Assembly: GCA_963795855.1 (NCBI GenBank)
Contig: CAWCIZ010000001.1
Location: forward strand, 192,001 to 256,000
Direction of reading: 5' to 3'
Length of the DNA: 64,000 nucleotides
DNA from: Vulcanimicrobiota bacterium
GTDB taxonomy: Bacteria > Vulcanimicrobiota > Vulcanimicrobiia > Vulcanimicrobiales > Vulcanimicrobiaceae
Made by a program: the position numbers and the translations under genes
Shown: positions 48,214 through 63,640 of the stretch, in pieces
How the letters are laid out: every line of letters begins with the position of its first letter
How positions within the stretch are numbered: the first letter of the stretch is position 1
The notes under the pieces: model-generated
What the model saw: the letters and a program-made list of their open reading frames with translations, nothing else
Databases searched by the model: none
Told to the model about the DNA's origin: nothing

Positions 48214-49419
48214 ACAGCAAGACCATCGTTCTAGCCTACTCCGGCGGCTTCGACACCTCCGTACTGCTCAAACGCTTTATTTTGGAAGGGCACGACGTTA
48301 TCGCGCTGACCGCCGACTTGGGCGAAAGCGATGCGATTGCGGGCAGCGGCGCGGCGCAAGCGCTGCAAGGCGTGAAGGCAAAAAGCGATCGCGCTCGGCG
48401 CGCGAGACGCGGTGCTCGTCGACGCGAAGCAGCGTTTCATCGAAGACTTTGCTTATCGCGCGCTGCACGCGAACGCTCTGTATCAAGGCGTGTATCCGCT
48501 TTCGGCAGCGCTCTCGCGCCCGCTGATCGCGCATCTGCTCGTCGAAACCGCGCATGCGTACGGTGCCGGTGCGGTTGCGCACGGGTGCACCGGAAAAGGC
48601 AACGACCAAGTGCGCATCGAGCTCGGCGTGCGCGCGCTCGACCCGCAGCTCGAGTGCCGTGCGCCGCTGCGCGAGAAACCGCTCTCGCGCCCGGACGCAA
48701 TCGCGTTCGCAAAGCGAGACGGCGTGCCGGTTGCGCACACCGCCGAGAAGCCGTACTCCATCGACGCGAATCTCTGGGGTCGGTCGATCGAAGCCGGCGT
48801 GCTTGAAGATCCCTGGAACGCGCCGCCGGAAGATGCGTACGCGTGGACGGCGTCGCCGCGAAGATCGTCCCGTCGACAGCCGGACGAAGTCACGATCGAG
48901 TTCTGCGGCGGTCTGCCCGCATGGAACGGCGCGACGGGCTGGCAGTTGATCGCGCAGTTGAACGCGATCGCCGGAAAACACGGCGTGGGCCGCATCGATC
49001 TGGTGGAAGATCGCGTCGTCGGTTTGAAGTCGCGCGAAGTCTACGAATGTCCCGGGCATCCGTTTTGCTCGTGACGGCGCGAAAGGCGCTGGAACGCGTC
49101 GTGCTCACGCGTGACGAGTTGCGCTTCAAATCGCAGCTGCGATCAGAAGTATGCGGAATTGGTGTACGACGGCCTGTGGATGTCGCCGCTGCGCGACGCT
49201 CTGGATGCATTCAATGCCAGCAGCGCGCAGCGCATGAGCGGCAAGGTTCGCGTGCGCTTGCATCAGGGCGCCGCAACCGTCACCGGCGTGCAATCGCCGT
49301 TCGGGCTGTATTCCGAGGCGCTCGCCACATACGGCAAAGACGATGCATTCGATCATCAGGCGGCGGAGGGATTCATCAAATTGCACGGTTTGCCGCTCGA
49401 GATGGTCGCGCGCACGTGA
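48210..49419 (+). CDS. argG: Argininosuccinate synthase; frameshifts
   Basis: VLAYSGGFDTS, ALSRPLI, HGCTGKGNDQVR, YSIDANLWGRSIE, GLKSREVYE, AEGFIKLHG. Confidence 0.93.
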
Positions 49420-50773
49420 CGAATTCGCTGCAGTGGGGCGGCCGCTTCAGCGCGCCGCCGGATCCGGTGCTGCTGCGGTTCGGATCCTCGCTGGAAGAAG
49501 ACCTCGTGCTCGCACCGTTCGACGTGCAGTGTTCCAAAGCGCACGTTGCGGCTCTGGAAGCGGGCGGCGTTCATCGCATCATCGCGCGCGAGCGAGTTGC
49601 GCGCTGCGCTCTGGAAGCGGTCGCATCCGAAATCGCGCAAGGGACTTCGAGCGGATCGCGCGTGCGAGCGGTGCGGAAGATATTCACGGCGCGATCGACG
49701 CGCGCGTGCGCGAACTCGCGCCGGAAGCCGGCGAACTGCTGCACGCGGGCCGCAGCCGCAACGATCAAGTCGCAACGACGCTGCTGCTGTATTGCGCGGA
49801 TCGCGCCGCGAGGGCGCAACGCAGTAACGGCCGGAATCGCATCGGCGCTGTGCGCATCCGCGGAAGACGAACTGCAAGCGGGCACGTCTGCTCGCAGCGA
49901 CGACGCATTGGCAGCCGGCACAACCCGTGCTGCTCGCCTTCTGGCTGTGCGCCGCCGCGGAACCATTTCTGCGAGATGCGCAGCGCTTTGCCGGCGTGCG
50001 GGCGCAATCGCTCGCGCGCATGTCCGCTGGGCTCCGCCGCGCTGGCCGGATCCTCGCTCCCGTTCGATCGGCGAGATCGCTGCAAACGCGCTCGGCTTCG
50101 CTGCGCCGTCGCGCAATGCTTTGGACGCGGTCGGCAACCGCGACGCGGCACTGGATCTCGCGCACGCGTGCGTTCGCGCGCTCGTTACGGCTTCGCGGCT
50201 TTGTGAAGAGATCGTGATCTGGAACACGCCGAACTTCGGGTACGTAACGCTGGGAGACGAAGCGGGCACCGGTTCGAGTTTGATGCCGCAAAAACGCAAC
50301 CCCGATCCGTTCGAATTGGTGCGTGCAACTTCGGCCGCGATGATCGGCCGATTTGCGGGTGCGCTCGCGACCGTGAACGGAATGGCGCTCTCGTATCACC
50401 GCGACCTGCAAGTCACCAAAAGCGCTGCAATCGAAATCGTCGAGGCGTGCTTGGCTTCGCTGGAAGCGTTCGCGCGCGCGCTCGAGCACTTGCAGTTCAA
50501 TCGCGGCCGGATGACCGCGCTCGCCGGCGAGGCGTTCACGGTGGCGACCGACGTTGCGGATCGACTGATCTGCAAACGGCGCGACCGCACGCGAAGCGCA
50601 TGCCGAAGTCGGGGCTGCCATACTGAAAAGCGAGCGCGAAAACACGCTGCTGGAGTGGCCTGACGCTCACGCGTCGGTCGAAGGAAAGGAGACTGCGGGT
50701 TCGACGCGTCCCGACTGCGGTGCGCGAGTCGCTGAGTGCCCTGCAGGCGGACGTCGAGGCGCTGCTTCGCTGA
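49416..50773 (+). CDS. argH: Argininosuccinate lyase; frameshifts
   Basis: WGGRF, EDIH, HAGRSRNDQV, PLGSAALAG, GSSLMPQKRNPD, YHRDLQ. Confidence 0.92.
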
Positions 50774-50786
50774 TGCCGGCGCCGGC

Positions 50787-51620
50787 TTACTGTTTGACGA
50801 ACAGCGCGTCCTTACACGTCAAACAGTTGCGCCCGAAGAAATCCGCGTAGTACGTGTCCACCAGCACCGTATCGCCGGTCGCGTCGACGAAAGCTTGAAT
50901 ATCCGTGCTTTTACGCTTGCTGTCTTCCACGATGACGTAGTCGCCGGGTTGCAGCAAAGGAGCAAGGTGGCGCAGCACGCCTTCCACGTTGACGTGCGCA
51001 TCTTCGATCACGAACCATGGGTGCGGTAAAGCTTCCAGCATGCTTGCGGGCAGATCGCAGTCGATCGTTTCACAGTCGCCTCGAACGAAGGTGATTCGCG
51101 CATCGTCGACTTGCGGCCGTTCCTTGTCGAAGGAGACGATCGACGGCGAAGGTTGAAAAGCCGACAGCACGTCGCAGAGCCATAAGGCGCTACCGCCCGC
51201 GCCGGCGCCGATTTCGATGACCGTGCGCGGCTTACGCTCCCACAGCATCATCGGATAGACGGCGATCTCGAAAACGCTCTTGAACAACGGAATGCCTCGC
51301 CAATTGGTGCAGTGCCGCACGCCTTGAAGCGAAGCAGATTGCAATCCGGCGATCTCCCAAGGGCGTCGAACGTAGTTTTGCGATTCGGCAGCGCGCTGCG
51401 CGTAGCGCACGTATCGCGGATGCTCCCGCGCAAGCTCGTAATATGCAGCCACGAGGGCGCTCTCGCACCACTCGGCGCCGGAGTCGTTGCTCCGAAGTGC
51501 CTCCAGCAGGCTGAGAACCATCTTATCAAAGCCCGCGTTCGTGCCGTGCTGCGCGCGCAGCGCCTTGTCCGTCACGATGCGCTCGAGATCGACGAGCATT
51601 TGAGGCGGCAGCGTGCCCAT
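50787..51620 (-). CDS. CmcI (cephalosporin hydroxylase)-family SAM-dependent O-methyltransferase with N-terminal extension
   Basis: WRGIPLFKSVFEIAVYPMMLWERKPRTVIEIG..GGSALW, VIEDAH, GDYVIVED, D.YY.DFFG.N. Confidence 0.82.
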   Translation of the reverse strand: MGTLPPQMLVDLERIVTDKALRAQHGTNAGFDKMVLSLLEALRSNDSGAEWCESALVAAYYELAREHPRYVRYAQRAAESQNYVRRPWEIAGLQSASLQGVRHCTNWRGIPLFKSVFEIAVYPMMLWERKPRTVIEIGAGAGGSALWLCDVLSAFQPSPSIVSFDKERPQVDDARITFVRGDCETIDCDLPASMLEALPHPWFVIEDAHVNVEGVLRHLAPLLQPGDYVIVEDSKRKSTDIQAFVDATGDTVLVDTYYADFFGRNCLTCKDALFVKQ

Positions 51621-53044
51621 CAAGACGTCCCGTTCAAGCGGCTATCGCAAGGGGCTGGCGCTCCGCATGGTTCTTTCGCTCGCCCTTTCACTTTATGATT
51701 CGGAATCGATACGATATGAGGTGCTGCGGGGGCTGGCTTCACCCTTTCACTGATGTTCTCGTATCGCAGCTTATTGAGCGGAATCGCGTAGACCGTTGTG
51801 CTTCCTGCTACGAATACCGTGTCTCCGACGACGACAGGCGGCGAGGTCGTAAATGGCTCCGCGAAGTCTAGACTCCTAATCATCTTACCTGTTCGCGCAT
51901 TTAACGAGTATAGGATTCCCGACGTGTCTCCCGCGATCAGCATCCCCCCTGCAATCACCGGGCTCATCTTTATCGGCGCAAGGGAGGTGAATGACCACCG
52001 AATTTTACCGGTGCGGGCGTCAAACGCCATAAGACGATCGTGCGTGCAAATCGGCTGATAGTAGGTCCCGTCCGCATACGTGCCTGCAATCGATCCCTCA
52101 TCCGATCCAACCGATGAATACATGCCTCGGTTTGGCGTGTGGTAAATCCATCTGAGCCTACCGCTATGGGCATCCAAGGCCGTGACGTCGGCAACGGTAT
52201 AATGCGTAATGGGTGACGTACCTGGCGCAAACCGGCTGCTACTGCAGAATACGGCTCCGTCGCCGTATGTTGGTGAACAATCCCAGTTCCCGTATGGCGC
52301 TCTCCAAATGATTCGTCCGGTTCGGGAATCCAATGCGTCCGTCTGGCACGCTTTGTCGGGCAACCTGTCGACACAGGTTGAGACGAAGATGGTGCTTCCG
52401 AGGAAATTCGCTGATGCCATTGCCGCGGGGCCTCCGAGCGTGCGCACCCAGCGCAGGCGGCCGGATTTCGCATCAATCCCGTAAGCGTGGCTGTCCCCAT
52501 TAGCAAATATGAGCGTATCGTTAACGAGCGCGGCGGACGGCATGTCCTCGCCGACCGTTTTGAACGACCAGACCTGCTTTCCGGTTTGCGCGTCGAACGC
52601 GGTCACTTTGTCGCCCTGCGCTCGGCCTAGCACGTCATAAGTTGTGAATGGCAATTGGACAGTGCCGGGGTCCGTGAGCGTACCATGCATACCGGAACCG
52701 ACGTAAACAAGCCCGTGGCCGACGACGGGCGTCGTCATGACGATATTGTCGGTATGGGCACGCCAGATAGGTCTTCCCGTCCTGACGTCCAGCGCTATCA
52801 CGTCTTTACCGAACGAGTCGACGTATAGCACGTCGTTCAAAATCGCTAAGCTGCCGTTGATCTTGCCTTCGGCCGTAAATTTCCAATGCGTGCGAAAGCC
52901 ATGCCGCGGAAACACCGCGTTGTGGCTGGGCGCATATTGGTACATCGGCCAAGACGCCGAAGAAAGCACATTAGCGTGACCGGTGTGGCAAGCCGCGAGA
53001 AACACGCACACTGGTAGCAATTTGTGAACCATACGAACTCTCAT
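51620..53044 (-). CDS. PQQ-like (BamB-type) beta-propeller repeat lipoprotein
   Basis: Lipobox-like FLAAC; repeated A(L/F)DA.TG...W motifs; WPMYQY...HN. Confidence 0.82.
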   Translation of the reverse strand: MRVRMVHKLLPVCVFLAACHTGHANVLSSASWPMYQYAPSHNAVFPRHGFRTHWKFTAEGKINGSLAILNDVLYVDSFGKDVIALDVRTGRPIWRAHTDNIVMTTPVVGHGLVYVGSGMHGTLTDPGTVQLPFTTYDVLGRAQGDKVTAFDAQTGKQVWSFKTVGEDMPSAALVNDTLIFANGDSHAYGIDAKSGRLRWVRTLGGPAAMASANFLGSTIFVSTCVDRLPDKACQTDALDSRTGRIIWRAPYGNWDCSPTYGDGAVFCSSSRFAPGTSPITHYTVADVTALDAHSGRLRWIYHTPNRGMYSSVGSDEGSIAGTYADGTYYQPICTHDRLMAFDARTGKIRWSFTSLAPIKMSPVIAGGMLIAGDTSGILYSLNARTGKMIRSLDFAEPFTTSPPVVVGDTVFVAGSTTVYAIPLNKLRYENISERVKPAPAAPHIVSIPNHKVKGRAKEPCGAPAPCDSRLNGTS

Positions 53045-54593
53045 TTTTTCGCCACTACCCATTGCATGAGTACCTCGCGGTCACGGCGTCCGCCGGTTAT
53101 CGTGAATGGAACCTTGCTGACGCAACATCCAAGTGCGCGCTCATACCGGCCCTTATCTACGGGGAAGCCAAGTAAATACACGCTTCCAAAATGGCGTAAA
53201 ATCGCTGGTGACGGTGGAGAAGACACCAAGTCCATATGCGCGCGAGGATTCAGATAAAAGAGCTACGTCGAGCGCATCGGCCCACGTTACCGGCATCACG
53301 AGCACCGGGTCATCCGCGGCGTTCACGCGAGCTGCGACGGGCTTGACCCAGCCGTTGAAGTCGTTGTCCCACCAGACGCCGGACCGTGCGTCGACGAACG
53401 AGGAGGCCGCACACAGGAGCATCAACGCGATTGCCGCGCATGCCCATGCATTGCGTGTCGCCGATCGCCTGCATCGGATACGAGAAGCCAAGAATCCTGC
53501 AACGCACACGACTAACGTCACCCACAACGGCATGCCATAACGTGTCACGCTGGAGCGGTGTGCATGAAACATGGCGTCAGTCCCAACCAAGGAAACAATC
53601 GGAACGAGCACGAGCGCCGCGGTGATGATACGCGTTCGTGGTGTGGCGCGCAAAAAATTCCAAACCAATGCGCTCAGCCCAATCGCTGCCACCGGAATAA
53701 GCACCAACCACGCACGGCGATGAACGTACTCGAGGTCAAAGAACGCAGAGCCGGCATTGAACGCCCAGGACGTTGCGAGCACCGAAAGCGACAACGAGCC
53801 CGCGCTCCACCGATTCAGAAAAAGAATTTCGCGCAGGTGTTCCGTCATTATCAAGAGCCACGGCACAAAGCCAATGGATGCAATAGCCAGACTAAGAAAA
53901 AATCTGCGCAGGCGTCTTCCGCGTAGCAGCGCAACGGCGTAGATGCTGTGAGCGAACAGCGTAACTGCAAATAGAGTATCCGTATAAAGGCCGAGCATCG
54001 CCATCGTGCAGTACGCCGCCCACCATCCCGTCGAGCTGGATCGACTGGCTCGTAAAAGGAGCGCCGTGCAAAGTGCGAAGATCAGCGACCACAGAGTGTA
54101 TTCGCGAGCCTGCTGCGAATGTATCAAGAGGACTGGTGACAGTGATGAGAGAGCAAAGCCTGCAGCCGCGGCAAGCCGGTTCCCATATCAGCTCCCAACA
54201 CAGGCCAGCTACCGCGAACGGCACGAGCAGGCCGAACAGTAAAGCAGGGGCGCGCAACTGCGCAATCGACATCCCGGCGACGCGAGTCCACAGCGCTGTC
54301 ATGACATAAAACAGTGGCGGATGCTGCGCGTCCTCGTTGGCTAACGAACGCACCGTATCGACCGCAGATCCGTGTTCGCCTCTACCGGTGAAACGCAGTA
54401 TCTCCGATACGCTTCGCGGTTTGCCAACTGCGTTGGCGGCGACGAACGCGCGAGCGGTGTGGCCGGACACCCGCAGAGCAGTCACGGCTTCATCGCTCCA
54501 GAACAGTCGCGTCGGTTCGCCGGTAAAGCGCAATGCCAGTCCTAATAAACCCGCAAGCACGAGCAGCGCGATGAGCTCGAAGGCGCGAGGCAT
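53041..54593 (-). CDS. GT39/ArnT-like (GT-C) membrane glycosyltransferase; frameshifts near 54170 and 53235
   Basis: FWSDEAVTALRVSG, DAQHPPLFY, SQQAREY, multi-TM. Confidence 0.78.
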
Positions 54594-55068
54594 CGCACCC
54601 GTTTTCCTCCGCGGGACCACAGTGCGGAACTCCCAGAGTGCCGGCGTGCGCTGGGCAACGCGGAATATATTCATTCTTCTGTAGTATAGGTTGCGCAGTA
54701 GTGACACTAACCGTCCCACCGCTCTCACAGAGCGATGGTGCTTATGGAGCCGTGGAAACCGGTCGCCATGGCTTACGATTCTGTGCTCATTCCGTAGGGC
54801 CGCCCGCCTGTCCGCGTGCGGGACGAATTACCCACCTTACGATCGGCAAATCGTGATCGACAAAGCCGCGCTATAGCGATCCGTTTGTTGGCGGCCGGCG
54901 ACGCTGCCGCTTTTCCATCCGAACTCGATCATGGCGCGGCTGGGGCGCAGGGCAACATCAGGAACAGTCGCTCCGGGGCGCGCATTGGACCCATGAAGCC
55001 CTAGTCATGATGCACCACGCCGCCTGCATCCGTGCGGGCGTTTCGCCCAGGAAGCCGCGGCTGATACG

Positions 55069-56337
55069 GTGAGTGCAAGGATCTATTTGCACATGTGGGA
55101 CACCAGCCGGCGCGAGGTGATGGATTGGCTTTTGCAGCCGTTCTCCATTGAAGCCTTCGCGTCCGAGTATTACGAGCGGCGTCCGCTCTATGTCGAGCGC
55201 AGCGATGCCGGTTATTACGACGGCCACGCGAGCCTTACGGACGTGGAAGCGTTGCTCTTCGGCGTCGAGCTCGAAAAGGGCGATTTACGCATAACGAAGG
55301 ACGGGGCGGACGTTCGGCCCGAGGAGTGGCTGCACGTCCTCGAGTCCTATAACAACGTCACAAAAAAAATTACCACGCGCGAGATCGTCGACCCGCACAA
55401 AGCCGTACAGTTGTTCGCAAGCGGCTGTACGCTGTTTTTCGAGCGCGCGGGGCGCCATTGTCCGGCGGTTGCCGCGATGCAATATCGGCTCGAATCCTTC
55501 TTCGGCCATGCGATCGATGCGGGAATATTTCTGACACCCGCCGGGGCGCAGGGCTTAGCCGTGCACTACGATTCGATCGATGCCATCGTCTTGCACTGTG
55601 AAGGCCGCAAACGCTGGCGCGTGTACGAGCCCTGCATCGAACTTCCGCTCGACGAGGCTCCGCGCAATCAGAAGGACAAGCCCGGAGCGCTATTGCTCGA
55701 CGTCGAGATGCGGCCCGGCGATATGCTGTACATGCCGCGCGGGACGTTTCACGAGCCGCGCGCAAACGACGCCAGCTATTCCTTGCACGTAACGTACGGT
55801 CTGCGGCCTGTGAAATGGCATCACGTTTTGCGCGAAGCCCTGCAGGATGCCGCTCGCGCGAATCCCCTGCTGCGTGCGAGCGCGTGCGCGCCCACGAGCG
55901 AAGAGTCGATTGCCGCAATCGTCGGGCAGACGTTTGCTCTCGCCAACCTGCGGCGTATCGAGCAGCGCCTGGACGACCGCAATCGTGAAACGATCCGCAA
56001 CCCGGGGAACGGCGTGCTGCAGCAGGCGGTTTCGCTTGACGATTTGACGCCGTCGTCGACGGTGCGCCTCCGCCCCGGCGCGATCTATTCCATAAAATCG
56101 AACGGCAGCGGGTGCGTCCTCACCTGCTCCGGCGTGCGCATACCGTTGCCGGAGCAGGCGCAGACCGCTGTTTCATTCCTGGAGCGCTGCGGCAGCGCTG
56201 CAATCGAAGACCTTCCGCTGGAGCCGTCCCGAGCCGTCGGGATCGTGCGTAAACTCATTGCAGCGGCCGTCCTCGAACAGCCGGGGTTACGCGCGCGCAG
56301 CGTTGAGAACGCGGTCTTCGCCGGAGCGGGTGAATAA
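55069..56337 (+). CDS. JmjC/Cupin_4 (ROX/YcfD-like) 2OG-Fe(II) oxygenase, paralogue A (alternative start 55093)
   Basis: F.SEYYERRPL, TPAGAQGLAVHYD, EGRKRWRVY, PGDMLYMPRGTFHE, SLHVT; C-terminal winged-helix-like domain. Confidence 0.88.
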   Translation: MSARIYLHMWDTSRREVMDWLLQPFSIEAFASEYYERRPLYVERSDAGYYDGHASLTDVEALLFGVELEKGDLRITKDGADVRPEEWLHVLESYNNVTKKITTREIVDPHKAVQLFASGCTLFFERAGRHCPAVAAMQYRLESFFGHAIDAGIFLTPAGAQGLAVHYDSIDAIVLHCEGRKRWRVYEPCIELPLDEAPRNQKDKPGALLLDVEMRPGDMLYMPRGTFHEPRANDASYSLHVTYGLRPVKWHHVLREALQDAARANPLLRASACAPTSEESIAAIVGQTFALANLRRIEQRLDDRNRETIRNPGNGVLQQAVSLDDLTPSSTVRLRPGAIYSIKSNGSGCVLTCSGVRIPLPEQAQTAVSFLERCGSAAIEDLPLEPSRAVGIVRKLIAAAVLEQPGLRARSVENAVFAGAGE

Positions 56338-57529
56338 CGGGCGAAGCCACTCGAAGGCGTGCAATTTGAACCAATCGTCTTCCAGCGCGCGCATCTCGCG
56401 CGAATCACCGCACGCACACCGGGCTGCCGCTTCGCCGAACGTCAAACCCTCAAGGGCGCATCGCAGTAAAAGACCGGGTGACTTCGAGGCGAAGTCGAGC
56501 GAACGCAGTCTGCACGAACCGGTCGAAGAGTTCCGCAAGTTTATCGCGCGGATCGATGCCTGGATACCGGTTTGCAAGGAATCGTTCGACGACGGCGATG
56601 TCGGGAGCGTGCGTCAACAGTGCGATCAGCAAGCGGATCTGCGGATCCGGGATCGACGCCATCGACTGCTTCGCGAAATGCATCTTCGCGCGCGATTTGA
56701 GCGCGCCGGCGAGAGTGTACGCCAAGCCGGCATGTCGCTTGGCGAGGATGGCGACCAATCGCGCACGAGAGACCGGGCTCACGCGATCCAGCGCGGGCAT
56801 CATGATGACGCTGCACGCGTCCCAAAACTCCGCCGTTTCGACGACTTGCGCGGCGGCCTCTTCGAAGAGCGCCGGATCGACTTTTGCGACGCTGCTCAGC
56901 AGCGCGAGTTTGGTTCGAAGCGGTTCGGGCTCGTAGGAAAAATCGTACGCAAGCCCCGGCCCGAGAAAGCTGTAGCGCTCGGTTTGAACCTCTTTCCTCG
57001 ACCGCACCAGCACGCTGATGGACGGCGATTCCAAGTGGAGAAGCGCATGGATGAAGCCGTTGCCGGCTGCGATCGCACGGATGCAGCCTTCCGAGAGATA
57101 CTCGGCGCTCTTAAAGCGGAGATCGCCCAAAGCCAGACGTTCGGTGATTTGCTCCGAGCGGTCAAACGAATATTGACAGTGGAAACTCGACCCTCTGAGC
57201 ACGCCCCACGCGCCCGCGAACGTATGCGAGTGTATCGACGTCGGCGCGTTGATCCAAAACAGCAGTTGCACGATCACGCTCTCGCCGATGAAGACGCAGA
57301 CGGGCGGGTCCGCGACCTTCGAAAGGGGAGGTCCGTTTTGCTGCGCCATTTCCCACGTGAGGATGTCCTCCAGGAGCACGGATCGCCAGCCGTCGTCGCG
57401 CTCGAGCGCCGCCGCTGCCAATTCGGGAAGTGCAGCAGGATCGCACTGCGTTGCTTGCCAGCGCCGGTCGACCGATTCCCCAATGCGGCGAAGACAATCG
57501 ATCTTTGCCGCAGCGGCCGTTGCGCTCAC
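56287..57529 (-). CDS. Cupin protein with cysteine-dioxygenase-like 3-His motif plus helical C-terminal region; frameshift near 56480
   Basis: TSIHSHTFAGAWGVLRG...FIHALLH..SISVLVR; starts 7 nt after the JmjC-B stop. Confidence 0.65.
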
Positions 57530-57536
57530 ACGAAGT

Positions 57537-58771
57537 CTATGCTACGGCGGTTTGCGCCGCCGGCTCGGTAGCGCTGGAGAGTTGAATCGCAAAACCGTCT
57601 TGGATGAGTTTGCGCACGACCTTCAACGCTTTTTCGTCGTGCTTGAGCAGATCGCCCGCGCGCACGCTGGTGCGGCTCTGCAATTCGTTGATGATTGCGG
57701 CCGCGTACGGCGCCAGCGTGAGCGTCTTGTTGGAGAACGTCAGTTTGGTGGCGTGCTCCGTCTGCTCGATGCTGCAGAGCATATCCGGCCGCACCGCCAC
57801 GATCGAATCCTCGGAGAGATCCTTTAGCCTTGCGATCTGCCCCAACTGTCCGCTGAGGTCGTTGCGGTAGCGCTCGTTGACGTAGCGGTTCGTCATCGAT
57901 TCCAGCGTCTCGCACAACGTTTGCGGGGAAAGCATTGCAGCGACGGCCTCGGCTATTTGCGCTGCGGTTTCCGGTGAGGCGTTTTTGCGGAGGACGGCAT
58001 CGGCGTGCGCCGATTCCTTGAGTGCCTCGTGCAGCACTTCAATCCAGCGCCTTTGGTGGATTCCCAGGGTAACGTGCAAGGAAAGGTCCTCGTTGGCGCT
58101 GGCCTCGTGCAAGAACCCGCGAGGGATGTACAGCATGTCTCCGGGCTGCATAGCGATGTCGAGCAGCGTTTCTTTTGAGGCGTGTATCTTTTTGTCGTGC
58201 GGCTGCGTCTCGAGCGGCAGTTCGACCGGGCTGTCGTAGACGCGCCAGTGCTTCGAACCGGTAATTTGGATGATCGCCGTGTCGTGCGTATCGTAGTGAA
58301 CGGCAAAGCCCTGGCTGCCGGGCGGCGTCATGTAGATATTGGGCTGGACGTCGCAGCGCCAGAAACGCTCCAGTTTCCGGCACAGCGTTGCGAGGGGGGG
58401 TGCGAACCGGTCCACACGGTCGAAAACGATCGTGCAGCCGTCGGCAAAGAGCGAAGAAACGAGATCGGGCTCGATGATTTCGCCGGGCGAAAGCTCTGAT
58501 CGCGCCGTATCCGGGTCTTTTTTGTGACGTACGTTTCCGGGCGCGCTTCAGTTCCGTCCTTTACCGGCCGCAAGTCTTTGGTGGTGATGACCGAGCCGAA
58601 CAGCACCCGCTCGTACTCGGCCAAACTGAAGTACTCATCGTAAAACCCCGGCACGTTACGCGATACGTGCAAGGGGCGCCGCTCGAAGTAGTCATTTTGA
58701 AACTGCTCGATCGACAGCGATCCTAACAGCCACGCTAATGTCGCGCGATCTTTCGCTTCGGTGCTGGGCAT
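57537..58771 (-). CDS. JmjC/Cupin_4 2OG-Fe(II) oxygenase, paralogue B; frameshift at an A6 run (~58520)
   Basis: F.NDYFERRPL, TPPGSQGFAVHYDTHD, GSKHWRVY, PGDMLYIPRGFLHEA, SLHVTLG; C-terminal winged-helix-like domain. Confidence 0.88.
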
Positions 58772-58908
58772 ACGGGTCGTCCTCCAAAGGTGCACAGAGC
58801 CCGTCTGGGTGGGCTGCAGGGCTTTACCGTGAAGCTACCTCACGTCGTACCACTCGGCAACGTCTAGTTGCATCATGGCAGCCTGCGTCGATGGGCCCCC
58901 GGCAAAAT

Positions 58909-58940
58909 AATTAGGCTCCCCGCTTGCGAGGAGCCCAATT
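58909..58940 (-). terminator. 14-bp hairpin after the small peptide gene (partial terminator or mRNA stabiliser)
   Basis: Minus strand AATTGGGCTCCTCG-CAAG-CGGGGAGCCTAATT-ATTTT. Confidence 0.7.
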
Positions 58941-58960
58941 CGGGGAGTGAGGCGCCGGAT

Positions 58961-59122
58961 TTAGTGGCTGTCGCCGCTTCCGAACGCACCGTCATTGGTG
59001 ATGTCGCACACGCCGTTCGGATCGGTCGGGCCGTCCGGGCACGAGGACGAGAAGCCGCTGCCATCGCCGTACAGCGCCGGTACGAAATACGAGGTCAGCA
59101 GTTGAGGGGTCTTGTATTCCAT
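58961..59122 (-). CDS. Putative RiPP precursor peptide, 53 aa: MEYKTPQLLTSYFVPALYGDGSGFSSSCPDGPTDPNGVCDITNDGAFGSGDSH
   Basis: Hand-translated (below the ORF-track cutoff); RBS AAAGGAGG 7 nt upstream; GC3-rich codons; YxxPxL motif; co-oriented upstream of the JmjC and cupin genes. Confidence 0.75.
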   Translation of the reverse strand: MEYKTPQLLTSYFVPALYGDGSGFSSSCPDGPTDPNGVCDITNDGAFGSGDSH

Positions 59123-59514
59123 GGGTTAGCCTCCTTTAAAAGTAGCGCCGCTGTCGCTATACAGTGGGCGGTACATACAAAGGTAGCAGCAGCGCTGCAA
59201 GGGCGGAATTTCCGTTGGCATCATTTCTTGCTAAGGAGTGCTGCTCAGGCTTATACGCCATGGTTTTGAACTTCTCACGCCGGTAGTCTGGTCGGCACCG
59301 GGCCGAATGGCGCTCGACACTCTTCGGACGGTTGCTTTTTCTGTCAGCGGGCGAACGGGCTTAATCCGAAGCGCACGAAAACGGAAAAATTTTTGAAGCA
59401 TTACGCTTTGCGCACGCAGGCCCGCGACAAAAGCAGGTGAATTGGTTAGGGCGATCGTGCTTACACGCCGGTCGGGCATCCCTTTTTTGCTTTTTCACCC
59501 AGAGAAAGTCTTGC

Positions 59515-60933
59515 ATGCACACCTCTTCCAAGATTGCCGCGCTTGCGATCGCTGCGTCCGTTCTGGCAGCGTGTTCCGGCGGCGGTGGTTCGCTCACTCC
59601 GCAATCCAATCTCTCTACGGCGCCGGCGGCGCCCGCGTCGGGCGCATCGCGCTTCATCGCAAGCACCGCCGCGGCAACCAACACTCAGGATTTCACCTAC
59701 GACGCGAATCCGCCGACCAAACCGTTCGGCAACGGCGCGCCGGTAACCGCAAATGCTCTACCGCCGCCTTCCGTCTGCGAGCAAGTATACGGGCTTGCAT
59801 GCTATACGCCGTCGGAAATCAAAACCGCGTACGACGTTCCGTCGCAGTTCAATGGGAGCGGCCAAACGATCGTGATCGTGGACGCCTTCGGCAGCCCGAC
59901 GATTCAGAGTGATTTGCACGTTTTTGACACGGTTATGGGTTTACCCGATCCCGCCTTCGACATCCAGTATCCGGGCGGCCAGCCCTCTGCTTTTGACGGC
60001 AGCAATAATCGATCCGGCTGGGCCGGAGAGACCTCGCTCGACGTGGAGTGGGCGCACGCTATTGCACCGGCCGCGACCATCCATCTCGTTATTGCAAAAA
60101 CCAACTCGAGCACCGACATCAGTACCGCGGAAGCGTACGCTATGCAAACGTATCCGGGGAGCGTCATCTCAATGAGCTTCGGCGCCGGCGAGCCGGCGAT
60201 TCCGGGCGGGGCGAACAACTCGCACTTGCAGCACGACGACAAATTCTTCCAGCAGGCGCAGCATCAGAACACCACGCTGATCGCGAGCGCGGGAGACACC
60301 GGAGCGACGAACGGCACGGGCACGCTGACCGCGGAGTTTCCGGCATCGGATCCCTCCGTGTTGTCGGTCGGCGGCACCGACCTGTTCATGAGCGACGCCG
60401 GCGTCTATCAGCAAGAGACGGTGTGGAACGATACCGTTTCGTCGTTGTGTCCGTTCGGCTGTTATTACGGCGCCTTTGGCGTGACGGGCGGCGCGCCCAG
60501 CCGCCTCTTCCGCGCGCCAAGTTATCAGCAGAGCCTCTTTCATCCCGACACGCGCGAGACGGCCGACGTCAGTTACAACGCCGGCGTCTACACCGCGGTC
60601 CTGGTCGCAGAGGGTTTCAACTCGCCGGGTCAGGTCGGATTCTATTTCGTGGGCGGAACGAGCGCCGGCGCACCGCAATGGGCCGGCATCATCGCGCTTG
60701 CGAATCAGGCCGCGGGACATTCGCTTGGATTCGTGAACAAATCCCTGTACCATATTGCGAAAAACGGGCCGTACGCTTCCGCGTTTCACGACGTCACCGT
60801 CGGCAACAACGCGCTGTTCAGCCTTCCGGGAGAAAACGCGGGACCCGGTTACGACATGCCGACCGGTCTCGGATCGCCGAACGTGGCGAACCTGATTACC
60901 GCGTTGACCGCGGACGGAAACTCCGGGAACTAA
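59515..60933 (+). CDS. S53 (sedolisin/kumamolisin-like) serine peptidase, lipoprotein
   Basis: Lipobox LAAC; ETSLDVEWAHAIAP, SAGDTG, FPASDPSVLSVGGT, GGTSAGAPQWAG, GYD.PTGLGSP. Confidence 0.9.
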   Translation: MHTSSKIAALAIAASVLAACSGGGGSLTPQSNLSTAPAAPASGASRFIASTAAATNTQDFTYDANPPTKPFGNGAPVTANALPPPSVCEQVYGLACYTPSEIKTAYDVPSQFNGSGQTIVIVDAFGSPTIQSDLHVFDTVMGLPDPAFDIQYPGGQPSAFDGSNNRSGWAGETSLDVEWAHAIAPAATIHLVIAKTNSSTDISTAEAYAMQTYPGSVISMSFGAGEPAIPGGANNSHLQHDDKFFQQAQHQNTTLIASAGDTGATNGTGTLTAEFPASDPSVLSVGGTDLFMSDAGVYQQETVWNDTVSSLCPFGCYYGAFGVTGGAPSRLFRAPSYQQSLFHPDTRETADVSYNAGVYTAVLVAEGFNSPGQVGFYFVGGTSAGAPQWAGIIALANQAAGHSLGFVNKSLYHIAKNGPYASAFHDVTVGNNALFSLPGENAGPGYDMPTGLGSPNVANLITALTADGNSGN

Positions 60934-60956
60934 CCACCGAAAATTCGTTCGAGAAG

Positions 60957-60991: not shown

Positions 60992-62630
60992 TTATCGCGG
61001 CGCGAGCGTCCAGTGCGCGACGTTCCACCACACGCCGTCCTGCGAGACGCTTTGCCCGCGCAGCCGGCTGGTGAACGTGTCGACTTCGTTGCGGTTGTAG
61101 ATCAACACGATCGGCAGATCCGCGGAAAGCAGCCGTTCCAGTTTCGCATAGATCGCCTTACGCTGCGCCGGATCGAACGTGCTGCGGCCTGCGCGCAGCA
61201 GCGCGTCGATCTGCGGATCGCAGATGCGCGACTTGTTGTAGCCGTGCGGCGGCACGTTGCCGCACGCGAATTGATCGGTCGTGTCGGGATCGTCTCCGTT
61301 CACGAACGAATACAGCGCGAGGTTGAACTTGCCGCCGTAAACCGGTCCGCCTTCGCTGGCCGGCGCGACGAACTGCGTGATGTTGAATTGCTTGAGCGAC
61401 ACGCGGCGCCGGCCGCGCGTTCGTATTGCGTCACGGAGTTGCCGATAATCGCATCGCCGGGAGTCGCGGCCTGGACGATCATCTGCAGATCGAGCGGGTT
61501 GCCGTCCTTGTGGCGCACGCCGTCCGCGCCGGCGCGCCAGCCCGCGGCATCGAGCAGTTTGCGCGCATCGTGCGCGATCGTACGGAACGTCCGGATATGC
61601 GTGCGGATCGAACGCCCAGAAGAAGAGTCCGCGGCCGGCCTGCGCGCTCGACACTGCGCCGCGATAGGCTTTGGCGACGAGGCTTTTGATGTCGATCGCT
61701 TCCGCGAGCGCGCGACGCACGCGCGGATCCGCCGTCGCGGCATTCTGCGTGTTGAAAATGATCGCGCCGACGCCGGCGACCGGGCTCGCGGTCGTGCGGT
61801 AGCCGGACAACGCCAGCGAGCTGCGGATACTGCGAGTAATCCTGTGTCGTTGAAGTAGCCCTGCACTTCAGCGTCTGAAGCAGGTTCAGCGCCGTCTGCG
61901 CGTCCGGAACGAAGCGGATGGTCAGGCGATCGATCTTCGGTTTGCCGCCGAAGTAGTACGGATTCGCGTGCATGACGACGCGATCGCCGTGCAGCCAGCG
62001 CGTCACGACGTACGGGCCGGAGCCGATCGGCTGCTGATCGAACGCGATGTGATTGAAGTCTGGATACTTCGCGAGCAGATGTTGCGGGAAGAATCGGAAA
62101 GCCTTGCGGCGCGAGCACGAGCGTCAGCAGCGGCGCAAAGGGCTCCTTCAAATGCAGCACCAGCGTGTAGTCGTTGGGCGCCTCGGCTTTCGCGATGCGA
62201 TCGTAGCCGTATCGCGACTGCACGTTGTTCGCCGGATTGTTGATGGCGTCGATGGACCACACGCAATCGCGCGCGGTCAGCGGCGCACCGTCCGCAAAGC
62301 GCACGCCTTTGCGCAGATGGTACGTCATCGTCAGGCCGTCGCGGCTGATGCCGCCGTTCGCGATCGACGGCGCCTGCGTCGCAACGTCGCCGATCGAGGT
62401 TTCCGCGATCGTCGTACTTCACGAGATAACGAAAAGAGCAGAAATCCCCACTCCGTCGAGGACTGTCCGTTTTCCAGCGCGGGATTGAGCGATCGCGGCT
62501 CACGCTGCTGCGCGATTTGCAACGACGTTTGCGTGTGCCGGCGCGCCGATTAGTTTGGGTGCGCGCTGTCAAAAGCGCACAGCGCCGAGCAGCACGCCTG
62601 CGGCAACTCGGGTGCGCGATGCTTCAGCAT
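60992..62630 (-). CDS. Peptide/oligopeptide ABC transporter substrate-binding protein (family 5); multiple frameshifts, start approximate
   Basis: EPRSLNP, YHLRKGVRFADG, PIGSGPY, ANPYYFGGKPKI, DPRVRRAL, AGWRAGADGVRHKDG. Confidence 0.85.
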
Positions 62631-63640
62631 GGCACCAGTCGAACGGCAGGTTGGGATCGGCGCTCAACGTGAGCGCATCGGCGCGCACGGCATCACCTTG
62701 GTGCGCGGCGGCCGCGGCAATCATCGCCGCGTTGTCGGTGCAATATTTCGGCGGCGGAACAAACGCGGGCACGCCGTTGCGCGCACTCCATTCGGCGAGC
62801 GCGGCTTGCAGCGCGGAGTTTGCGGCGACGCCGCCGGAAAGCACGACGCAGGTGTACGCGCTGCGTTCGAACGCCGCGTTCGAGACGCTGCATCAGCACG
62901 TCAATCACCGCCGCTTGAAACGATGCGGCGACGTCCGCCTTCTCGGCTTGCGCGCCTTCGGGATTCCAAGTAATAGCGAACCGCCGTTTTCAGGCCGGAA
63001 AACGACATGTCGAGCGAGCCCGGATCCGGGACGATGTCGCGGAAACGCAATCGCCTTTGCGTTGCCGCCTTTGGCGAGTTTGTCGAGTGCGGGCCCGCCG
63101 GGAAAGCCCAAACCGAGTAGACGCGCCGTCTTGTCGTACGCTTCGCCCGCTGCGTCGTCTTTCGTCCGCCCGATGACGCGCATCTGCGTCGCGCTTTCGA
63201 CTTCGACGAGTTGCGAATGTCCGCCGGAGACCAGCAGCGCCAAAAACGGATACTGCGGCGTCTGCTCGCGATCCAGAAACGCCGCAAAAATGTGGCCGTG
63301 CAAATGATTGACGCCGTACAGCGGTTTGTCGATCGCGAACGCGAGCGCTTTCGCCGCCGCGACGCCTACGACCAAACTGCCGATAAGGCCCGGGCCGCGC
63401 GTTACGGCGATGCCGTCGATTCGTCATCGAGTCGTCGTGCCGGCGCGGTCGACCGCGTCCTCCACCGCGGCGGAGAGCAGCGCGACGTGCCGGCGGCTCG
63501 CGATCTCCGGCACGATGCCGCCGTACTTCGCGTGAAACGCGTCTTGGTTCGTCGAGACGCTCGCACGAACGCGCACGGCCGTCCTCAACCACGGCGGTCG
63601 CCGTGTCGTCGCACGAGGTTTCGATCCCGAGCAAAAGCAT
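62569..63640 (-). CDS. tsaD: tRNA N6-adenosine threonylcarbamoyltransferase; multiple frameshifts, 3' end approximate
   Basis: [66 protein letters not shown]. Confidence 0.93.

Follow-up and report, generated by a model that had tools for sequence, protein, structure and literature searches.

A peptide-oxygenase cassette in a Vulcanimicrobiota bacterium as a candidate satellite of a dispersed, LPP-like RiPP system

Genes and features of the insertion

The window, a 64,000-nucleotide stretch of a Vulcanimicrobiota genome (G000), contains a small peptide gene, a hairpin, two JmjC genes, a 3-His cupin gene and an S53 protease gene (Table 1). ORF and sequence checks located each of these parts where the original prediction had placed it. 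The peptide, both JmjC genes and the cupin are real and comprise one cassette; the S53 gene lies outside it. The block had been described as lying between argH and an ABC binding-protein gene, which is correct, but its extent was underestimated: the insertion spans approximately 50.7 to 61.0 kb, not only 55 to 61 kb. In G005, locus comparison places the genes flanking the insertion ~350 bp apart, and G001, G002, and G003 carry different cargo at the same argH/binding-protein site. The GC content of the insertion is 0.56 to 0.64 in 1-kb windows, versus 0.64 to 0.66 in the immediate flanks.

Table 1. Features of the variable insertion in the window.
Feature	Position	Strand	Remarks
Variable insertion carrying the cassette	50700..60950		between argH and ABC binding-protein gene
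PQQ-type beta-propeller gene	51620..53062	-	possible accessory
JmjC-A	55093..56337	+	PF08007; second type of JmjC in the clade; inverted relative to peptide operon
3-His cupin	56287..57529	-	ORF 57529-56450 plus C-terminal tail in shifted frame
JmjC-B, NO66/MINA (ROX)-like Fe/2OG oxygenase	57537..58771	-	PF08007, E 3e-31
Hairpin, 14 bp, GC-rich	58909..58940	-	directly 3' of peptide stop
Precursor peptide gene, 53 aa	58961..59122	-	ORF and RBS; 19-member family
S53 (sedolisin/kumamolisin-like) protease	59515..60933	+	lipoprotein-type signal (LAAC)

The JmjC-B gene shifts frame at an A-run near position 58520, which splits it, and the C-terminal tail of the cupin lies in a different frame (~56500-56287). 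Both are probably assembly errors, because argG, argH, and the gene for the ABC binding protein are disrupted in the same way, although genuine frameshifts are possible. For JmjC-A, the ATG at 55093 is a likelier start than 55069. The beta-propeller gene is a possible accessory of the cassette: its orthologs (48-50% identity) adjoin the JmjC operon at 3 of the 15 other cassette loci (L137, L176, and L181).

The S53 gene (kumamolisin match, E 5e-36; likelier start ATG 59515) displays ETSLD, SAGD, and GTSAG, which we take to be the Glu-Asp-Ser triad motifs of S53 sedolisins. This protease was initially counted as a component of the system, and it could be the leader peptidase of the cassette, given that it is adjacent to and divergent from the peptide gene within the same insertion and that G037 and G038 have 57%-identical orthologs somewhere in the genome. 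However, S53 is absent from all 15 other cassette loci, its homologs occur in 34 of 60 relatives, most of them without the peptide system, and no peptide, JmjC, or cupin match was found within 1.5 kb of 19 S53 homologs. Furthermore, the protein bears an export signal, and an S26 peptidase is already encoded in the hub described below. A leader peptidase role is therefore very improbable, and we judge the S53 gene to be a co-inserted passenger.

Precursor peptides and cassette oxygenases

The 53-aa ORF is preceded by AAAGGAGG 8 nt upstream, and residues 3-8 of the peptide, YKTPQL, match YxxPxL, the leader motif originally proposed. That motif holds for the window peptide, but in the family it broadens to YxxPx[I/L/V], with L in only 5 of 19 members. 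All 19 precursors examined share the pattern YxxPx[ILV]...[A/V/G]-x-G followed by x-x-S. Among these JmjC-adjacent precursors, which diverge at third codon positions, the Y, P, Y, G, and S positions are invariant; numbered from the motif Tyr, the last two are Gly21 and Ser24, and position 19 is A, V, or G. Signal peptidases follow a -3/-1 rule. The cut site was predicted from this rule together with the published LPP (linear polyphosphorylated peptide) system (PMC13381572). If the cut follows the invariant Gly, Ser occupies core position 3 in 19 of 19 precursors, while it makes up 6% of later core residues. In the window peptide, the predicted leader comprises residues 1-23 (YxxPxL...G-x-G), with cleavage after Gly23, and the predicted 30-aa core begins with F-S-S (Ser3 is residue 26), is rich in Asp, Asn, and Gly, and has two Cys. 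Across the family, leaders are conserved and cores are variable; Asp and Asn account for a quarter of core residues, and Cys is absent from 3 of 19 cores. The window's genome encodes six peptides of this leader family, the 53-aa ORF among them. The peptide is supported as a conserved RiPP-type precursor with a leader of the RRE-bound type, as originally proposed.

The hairpin region has a z-score of -2.77 (2 of 200 shuffles were equally good) and no Rfam match, and the 80 nt 3' of the stop codon reach z <= -2 in 12 of 19 precursors (mononucleotide shuffles). The hairpin probably stabilizes or partly terminates the transcript, which would raise the peptide:enzyme ratio.

Both JmjC proteins match PF08007 and belong to the peptide-linked clade, in agreement with the original assignment of both genes to the peptide. 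In JmjC-B, the motif HYDTHD...G.K.W...HE supplies HxD...H and the 2OG-binding Lys. The 24 close JmjC proteins form one clade (support 0.999), in which 23 members have the first facial-triad motif and 20 have the distal-His pattern under a strict definition. JmjC-A groups with proteins from L137, L140, L177, and L181, each of which shares an operon with a second clade member; at L140, the order is peptide-JmjC-cupin-JmjC, all co-oriented.

With a precursor profile built only from G000 peptides, JmjC genes of the close clade were seen to have a peptide directly upstream in 7 of 7 other genomes (6 of 6 if the unpublished G266 is set aside) and at 5 of 6 metagenome loci. The profile finds none at 95 generic JmjC loci (22 genome and 73 metagenome loci, 57 of the latter with at least 500 nt upstream) and matches 0 of 59 genomes that have only generic JmjC. 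Among 401 genomes the profile matches 10: the eight clade genomes and two with weak matches beside HprK-like genes. Because a profile from G000 alone matches upstream of close JmjC relatives and at no generic locus, the peptide-JmjC pairing exceeds chance. Absence of small peptides from the flanks of close homologs had been named in advance as the outcome that would count against the prediction, and peptides are present.

Over their whole length, the closest structures to the JmjC enzymes are NO66, MINA53, and YcfD. The JmjC-A model matches NO66 over its full length (Z 29.3, rmsd 4.5, 370 aligned residues, ~24% identity) and has the ROX architecture of a JmjC domain, dimerization helices, and a C-terminal winged helix. 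This likeness invites the interpretation that the enzymes act on cellular proteins, as ribosomal oxygenases do, and that the peptides are unmodified regulatory or signaling ORFs that precede them by coincidence; L181, where two clade JmjCs occur and the 6-kb flank lacks a peptide, fits it. On the other hand, ROX enzymes are encoded by single housekeeping genes, whereas this clade is patchy (8 of 401 genomes), reaches four copies per genome or locus, and nearly always follows a small peptide. The peptides also show a conserved leader with a variable core, and the same leader precedes RRE and kinase genes. Moreover, cores are more alike where JmjC active sites are more alike (rho 0.365, permutation p 0.0008, from related loci that are not independent); leader similarity shows no such trend, and the whole-peptide correlation is not significant (rho 0.115, p 0.15). 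We consider action on cellular proteins highly unlikely.

The cupin has no Pfam or NCBIfam match, and its family comprises 2042 clusters at 50% identity. Its assignment to the cassette is upheld; the L006 and L140 cassettes are the only ones to carry it besides that of the window. His102/104/163 are invariant in 127 of 127 aligned relatives. The AlphaFold2 model of an intact relative, P0002 (pLDDT 93), retrieved thiol dioxygenases or their homologs as all of the listed top Foldseek matches (E ~2e-6), at 10-18% identity and a TM-score to targets of ~0.43-0.66. As modeled, the cupin is an unannotated family with a thiol-dioxygenase (CDO/MDO/ADO-like) fold. Like these enzymes it has a 3-His metal site in a cupin barrel; unlike them it is ~410 aa long and ends in a C-terminal domain that is large and helical. 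No Ser-His-Tyr outer triad like that of CDO is evident; conserved in its place are a fourth His, an Arg, and a Tyr. Among sampled neighbors of 72 distant cupin loci, only nine included a RiPP class enzyme or a C39 transporter.

A candidate hub in trans and its likeness to LPP

On contig C2 of G000, at ~119.9-124.5 kb and beside a capsule locus, a hub encodes a discrete RRE, a SipW-like S26 peptidase, an HprK-like kinase, an NTP transferase, an ABC exporter, and two peptides with the same leader. The RRE matches PF05402 above the cut-off (C2:121207-121404) and the NTP transferase matches PF14907 (E 1e-47). The best match of the peptidase is TIGR02228 (E 2e-8; 34 bits, under the 51.85 cut-off), with Ser/His/Asp visible, and that of the kinase is TIGR04352 (E 3e-9). 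For the exporter, the hub has a 262-aa ABC ATPase that stands alone and, as a gene of its own, a membrane protein that reads by eye as an ABC-2-type permease. Kinase and NTP transferase are conserved in G229, G369, G037, and G038, all four of which have the full hub with two peptides, and G402 has an uninterrupted run of RRE, peptide, JmjC, and two HprK-like genes. Seven of the eight cassette genomes contain the closest relatives of the RRE, and the best non-seed matches among 67 genomes are in G266, G038, and G037, all cassette genomes.

This gene set resembles the lpp cluster of Paenibacillus alginolyticus, reported in 2026 and described as restricted to Bacillota, whose precursors are cut three residues before phosphorylated Ser3 (PMC13381572). 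Common to both are a discrete RRE, a signal peptidase I of the archaeal type, an HprK-like kinase, an NTP transferase, and an exporter in a capsule locus, with the peptidase-RRE pair present here in trans to the cassette; a YxxPx[V/I/L] leader; a conserved Ser three residues past the presumed cut; one to three precursors at the core locus; flanking capsule-type genes; and, as far as these incomplete genomes allow, no detected macrolactam cyclase or B2 peptidase. There are differences as well. The host belongs to another phylum. Compared with the LPP consensus YxxPxVLxHQxIxFETxxS (PMC13381572), the leader retains YxxPx[ILV][LV] and the terminal xxS, lacks HQ and FET, is six residues longer up to the cut and five up to the Ser, and ends in [A/V/G]-x-G rather than F-E-T, with Gly instead of Thr at -1. 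The exporter is an ABC ATPase plus ABC-2 permease, whereas LPP has an MsbA-like transporter. Additional precursors are dispersed in satellite cassettes with the dedicated JmjC clade, the CDO-like cupin, and sulfotransferase-like or GNAT genes; the main text of the LPP paper mentions no oxygenase, cupin, or JmjC (PMC13381572).

The best NCBIfam matches of the hub kinase and RRE are to the HPr-rel-A system (TIGR04352/TIGR04353) and a paeninodin-type lasso tailoring cassette, far under curated cut-offs (36 versus 200 bits; 25 versus 35), and unlike those cassettes the hub has no lasso cyclase or B2. We give hardly any credence to the idea that the peptides are lasso or lanthipeptide precursors with a cyclase elsewhere in the genome, despite the YxxP leader, the Ser/Thr and Cys of the cores, and one LanC-like gene in G000. 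PF13471 (lasso B2) is absent from G000 and occurs in one of five other cassette genomes, on another contig; the only strong Asn_synthase match is a full amidotransferase in a glycosyltransferase locus; and none of the cassette or hub loci read showed a cyclase-like gene. Neither a dehydratase nor a precursor was seen with the solitary LanC-like gene, and five other cassette genomes gave no LanC-like match, although control genomes gave no match either.

The hub also bears on the original proposal that primary modification falls to the oxygenases. As that proposal stated, no class-defining enzyme lies nearby, but an LPP-type set with two same-leader peptides is present on C2, and the precursors retain two features suited to this set, a signal-peptidase-type site and an invariant Ser3, which weakens the proposal. 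In its full form, it would make the oxygenases class-defining and independent of the hub, with the JmjC winged helix as a built-in RRE and a general protease freeing the core. In an RRE, three strands precede three helices that bind the leader; the JmjC-A C terminus, read within the whole-protein model, runs from three strands to a helix, a short strand, and a second helix (E341-360, H362-374, H386-398), which may fit a built-in RRE, and JmjC-fused RRE-like folds with bacterial homologs in RiPP-like contexts have been described (PMC12710340). G000 (86% complete) yielded no YcaO, SPASM, or lasso B2, and G179 (93% complete) has peptides and clade JmjC with no RRE found. However, a winged helix is also present in NO66 and YcfD, neither of which has a RiPP role; hub peptides without an adjacent JmjC begin with this leader too and share its [A/V]-x-G site; the kinase and S26 peptidase account better for the small-residue site and Ser3; and RRE relatives accompany nearly all cassette genomes. 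We regard hub-independent oxygenases as unlikely; they are probably tailoring, not class-defining, enzymes.

Proposed pathway and significance

Our preferred reading, to which we assign a probability of about two in three, is that the cassette in the window is a satellite of a dispersed, LPP-like RiPP system whose hub modifies its peptide in trans. Points against this reading are the departures of leader and exporter from LPP, the cassette genome G179 with no RRE found, the L181 locus with no peptide nearby, the three cores that lack Cys, the restriction of the cupin to three cassette loci, the scarcity of RiPP neighbors at distant cupin loci, the nonsignificant whole-peptide correlation, and the chance that the frameshifts are genuine. 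We infer all of the chemistry. From LPP biochemistry, the RRE would bind the YxxPx[ILV] leader, the HprK-like kinase would phosphorylate the invariant Ser, and the S26 peptidase would cut after [A/V/G]-x-G, the x-x-S... core then being exported. JmjC-B and JmjC-A probably hydroxylate core side chains, each tuned to its neighboring core; the beta-carbon of Asp/Asn is the likeliest target given the abundance of these residues. More speculatively, the cupin might oxidize core Cys thiols. Such a pathway would yield a short, highly acidic phospho-hydroxy-peptide associated with the cell surface or capsule, where it perhaps binds metal or acts as a signal.

We found no description of this combination of peptide, hub, and oxygenases in the literature. 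JmjC enzymes that hydroxylate RiPP precursors are known, namely BipG/PbsQ (biphenomycin) and CzlI (curacozole) (PMC12707348, PMC11575548, PMC12257519). Like the cassette enzymes, they are Fe/2OG JmjC proteins with a 2-His-1-Asp site encoded beside the precursor, and their reaction is a +16 Da hydroxylation; unlike them, they occur singly, as accessory enzymes of rSAM/MNIO or YcaO pathways, and their targets are Orn or Phe. At the cassette loci, one to four JmjC paralogs follow acidic cores rich in Asp, Asn, and Cys.

If the preferred reading is correct, the LPP-like family extends to another phylum with a different design, in which one hub serves several dispersed precursor-oxygenase cassettes. 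Satellite cassettes would be candidates for secondary modification by the partners beyond the core cluster suspected in the LPP study, in which neither the final product nor the NTP transferase activity was identified (PMC13381572). Defined small substrates would be supplied for two uncharacterized enzyme groups, the bacterial NO66-like JmjC clade and the CDO-like cupins that lack a Pfam model, which bears on what bacterial ROX-like proteins modify and whether their winged helix reads leaders. A bolder and rather doubtful possibility is that the JmjC clade and cupin carry out the chemistry that defines a new RiPP class, with multiple beta-hydroxylations of Asp/Asn and oxidation or cross-linking of Cys in a core that is phosphorylated (and elsewhere sulfated), yielding a ribosomal metal chelator, with one RRE/peptidase/kinase hub serving a genome-wide library of precursor-oxygenase cassettes. 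Were this true, the cupin would be the first characterized member of a ~2000-cluster family of peptidyl thiol dioxygenases across RiPP pathways.

Genes in the window and their insertion site

Every gene listed in the original prediction is present in the window. A strong RBS precedes the 53-aa ORF, which contains a YKTPQL motif and is followed, 3' of its stop codon, by a 14-bp hairpin; both JmjC-A and JmjC-B match PF08007. A Pfam search of window genes returned no family for the cupin, the peptide or the S53 protein, the last of which was identified by its kumamolisin match. No Rfam match and no sigma-70 consensus promoter was found in the region. The reading frame of JmjC-B shifts at an A-run near 58520, and the C-terminal 60-70 residues of the cupin lie in a different frame; because argG, argH and the ABC binding-protein gene show breaks of the same kind, we treated these frameshifts as assembly errors, and the indel rate of this assembly is probably high.

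A genome of the same genus (G005) has only ~350 bp between argH and the binding-protein gene, and three further genomes (G001-G003) carry different cargo there; the whole 50.7-61.0 kb block is therefore an insertion at a variable site. Its CmcI methyltransferase and two membrane glycosyltransferase-like ORFs have no homologue in the 15 other cassette loci.

Coordinates of features in the window, elsewhere in the source genome (G000, contigs C1-C3; the window is C1:192001-256000) and at one metagenome locus; L-numbers are fetched loci
Feature	Location	Remarks
argG, argH, ABC binding-protein gene, tsaD	window 48400-50600 and 61000-63600	frameshifts in the first three; fragmented ORFs over tsaD
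CmcI-like methyltransferase	window 50787-51623	inside insertion
PQQ-type beta-propeller	window 51620-53062	48-50% orthologues flank JmjC operon in three other loci
Membrane glycosyltransferase-like gene	window 53153-54728	frameshifted; inside insertion
Stand-alone LanC-like gene	C1:289.0-289.7 kb (L326:7048-7686)	neither dehydratase nor precursor seen
Tandem 'RYAAPVRRV'-like repeat ORF	C2:103.6-105.0 kb	5' of peptide-JmjC locus
Peptide-JmjC cassette L004	C2:108.6-110.2 kb	
Family peptide	C2:108622	5' of JmjC paralogue
Hub	C2:119.9-125.2 kb (L005:7933-13202)	adjoins capsule locus
Two family peptides in tandem	G000	5' of PqqD/RRE gene
Peptide-JmjC cassette L006	C2:563.7-569.3 kb	intact JmjC-B-type paralogue (563.7-564.9 kb), cupin paralogue, two sulfotransferase-like genes, opposite-strand methyltransferase
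Family peptide	C2:565274	5' of JmjC paralogue; cupin paralogue and two sulfotransferase-like genes also there
Second RRE-like ORF	C3:252.5-252.8 kb (L317:8546-8824)	isolated; no peptide found nearby
Family peptide	C3:683.8 kb (L007:8653-8811)	5' of GNAT-like gene, no JmjC; similar in G179 (L175); third satellite type
Metagenome gene set	L181:426-5971	CysD/CysN-like (by eye), TauE-like permease, sulfotransferase-like, two clade JmjCs, gene shared with L137

A precursor family and its JmjC clade

The window peptide belongs to a real, undescribed family of precursors, which has a dedicated clade of oxygenases. The source genome encodes six peptides with the same leader, the window peptide included. 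Among 401 genomes from the phylum, 67 carry a JmjC relative (E <= 1e-25), and those of eight genomes (G000, G037, G038, G179, G229, G266, G369 and G402) score >300 bits, the remainder scoring <=252 bits. A leader profile built solely from five source-genome peptides detected a peptide directly 5' of a high-scoring JmjC in all seven other genomes (6/6 without the unpublished G266; the weakest matches scored 15.8 and 18.8 bits) and at none of 22 loci of other, generic JmjC relatives fetched with 1.5-kb flanks. A 14-peptide profile, to which seven of the eight genomes contributed sequences, matched 10 of the 401 genomes, namely these eight and two with weak matches beside HprK-like genes; it matched 0/59 genomes with generic JmjC only.

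An independent metagenome scan of 79 loci found the peptide at five of six close JmjC loci and at 0/73 generic ones, 57 of which had at least 500 nt upstream. The sole close miss, L181, has no peptide within 6 kb, and its two clade JmjCs lie 3' of sulfate-activation-like and sulfotransferase-like genes, a gene set that suggests sulfation. A midpoint-rooted tree combined the 24 close JmjCs with 32 of the 91 generic ones, and in it the close JmjCs form one clade with a support of 0.999. JmjC-A groups in a subclade with four JmjCs, each of which shares an operon with another clade member. At locus L140, a peptide, a JmjC, a cupin and an A-type JmjC are co-oriented, that is, the same four genes as in the window without the inversion. 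Both JmjC-A and the cupin belong to the cassette.

Statistics on the peptides were drawn from 19 JmjC-adjacent precursors, with G266 left out. Leader codon identity at positions 1, 2 and 3 is 59, 66 and 39%, in agreement with the expectation under protein-level selection. Counted from the motif Tyr, position 19 is A/V/G, position 21 Gly and position 24 Ser in every one of the 19. Signal peptidases favor small residues at -3/-1; a cut after the Gly would fit this rule and would place the invariant Ser at core residue 3, and for the window peptide the prediction is a leader of 23 residues followed by a core of 30. The cores are rich in Asp and Asn (together 25%) and Gly (15%), and contain exactly two Cys in 16 precursors and zero in three. 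In the ESM Atlas, similarity to the peptide is at most 0.85, to unnamed clusters. We found no published description of a system combining JmjC/cupin enzymes, such a precursor and RRE/S26/HprK genes in literature searches that covered few subscription journals.

The cupin family and the S53 protease

The cupin represents a large family that lacks annotation and forms 2042 clusters at 50% identity, with three invariant His residues and, according to a structure model, a thiol-dioxygenase fold; in the ESM Atlas it reaches 0.97 to hypothetical proteins in unnamed clusters. It is present in only 3 cassette loci, and a single-protein query found none in 60 relatives. In other phyla, a radical SAM, lasso-cyclase-like, Lan or C39 gene is the immediate neighbor at 9 of 72 sampled cupin loci and a carbamoyltransferase at three, in a scan that covered 101 of 103 picked ORFs, some of them probably in wrong frames. 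Only part of the family is RiPP-associated.

At L048, L057, L047 and L054, short ORFs that look like precursors of the double-Gly or acidic-leader type lie directly 5' of cupin homologues; the first two loci also have radical SAM neighbors. In Acidimicrobiales (L052, L058, L060, L070, L073) the cupin is found near PqqD-like and lasso-cyclase-like genes. Family members P0129, P0064, P0019, P0014 and P0015 include cases in which a LanC-like, LCM methyltransferase or TPR domain is fused to the cupin, and several that are ~710-750 aa long, with an unannotated second half.

The proposal that the S53 protease is a member of the system did not hold. Homologues occur in 34 of 60 relatives; S53 is absent from all 15 other cassette loci, and neither a peptide nor a JmjC nor a cupin lies in the 1.5 kb around 19 homologues. 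It was rejected as the leader peptidase, and so were routes of the lasso, lanthipeptide, YcaO and SPASM types; no lasso B2, YcaO or SPASM gene was found in the source genome, which is 86% complete.

A probable hub in trans and the proposed chemistry

The core machinery that is not at the cassette is probably encoded in trans by the hub, which comprises genes for a response regulator, an NTP_transf_5 protein, an ABC ATPase, a permease, two family peptides, an RRE, an HprK-like kinase and an S26 peptidase carrying Ser, His and Asp. A capsule-type gene block connects it with the peptide-JmjC pair at C2:108.6 kb. Complete hubs with two peptides are also present in G229, G369, G037 and G038; that of G266 has at least the permease, peptides, RRE, kinase and peptidase, and in G402 an RRE, a peptide, a JmjC and two HprK-like genes are contiguous. 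No RRE was found in G179. RRE relatives occur in 67/401 genomes. More distant RRE/HprK/S26/ABC clusters from the phylum (L320, L321, L322, L323 and L154) have no JmjC, and some have shorter related leaders.

By analogy, the system probably works like that of linear polyphosphorylated peptides (LPP), whose gene set was defined in Bacillota capsule loci. The LPP leader is YxxPxVLxHQxIxFETxxS, its cleavage by a SipW-like peptidase is RRE-dependent, and core Ser3 bears 1-4 phosphates (PMC13381572). The hub gene set in a capsule setting and the predicted Ser3 position are common to both; however, the leader consensus and the transporter type of LPP were not found here, and we therefore file the system as a variant rather than as an LPP member. 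The main text of that paper mentions no JmjC, cupin, oxygenase or Eremiobacterota, and 'Cupin_4' is one column heading of 834 domains in the header row of its supplementary matrix (PMC13381572).

Beyond the genes, motifs, family, co-occurrence and folds, which are observed, we propose on the LPP model that the hub would bind the leader, phosphorylate, cleave and export the peptide. The JmjC enzymes, following JmjC precedent, would hydroxylate the core, and more tentatively the cupin might oxidize core Cys. Our best guess for the hydroxylation target is Asp/Asn, because these residues occur in every core. Among reported enzymes, BipG hydroxylates Orn (PMC12707348), CzlI hydroxylates Phe and requires flanking precursor sequence (PMC11575548), and PbsQ adds 16 Da (PMC12257519). 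Sulfotransferase-like genes at L006, L137, L176 and L181 and extra HprK-like genes at L141 and L180 suggest that hydroxyl groups are further esterified.

Across 17 peptide-JmjC pairs, similarity between cores goes with similarity between the active sites of the JmjCs (rho 0.365, p 0.0008), a result that is no more than suggestive, because the loci are related; no such correlation is seen for the leader (rho -0.17) or the whole peptide (rho 0.115, p 0.15). Nearest peptide and nearest JmjC come from the same locus in 12 of the 17 pairs, the window's own pair being one of the five exceptions. This is suggestive of a shared RRE that reads the leader and a local oxygenase that reads the core. A less likely but live alternative is that the C-terminal winged helix of the JmjC proteins is a built-in leader reader and that the oxygenases act without the hub; RRE-like folds fused to JmjC domains have been noted (PMC12710340). 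The JmjC-A model aligns with NO66 over its length. A wide structure search with it, which barely probed the C-terminal domain, gave no RRE among the matches listed, and profile comparison of the JmjC and hub RRE alignments, both too shallow for this to bear on the fold, gave no match (probability 0.2%). The predicted complex of JmjC-A and the peptide scored 0.00, with controls not folded, and counts neither for nor against the interaction.

Distant loci in G087, G316, G060 and G113 contain RRE, HprK-like, S26 and ABC genes, with related leaders at two of them, and these four genomes are not among the JmjC-matching ones (E <= 1e-25, 401 genomes). The JmjC cassettes are therefore an add-on to a wider system.
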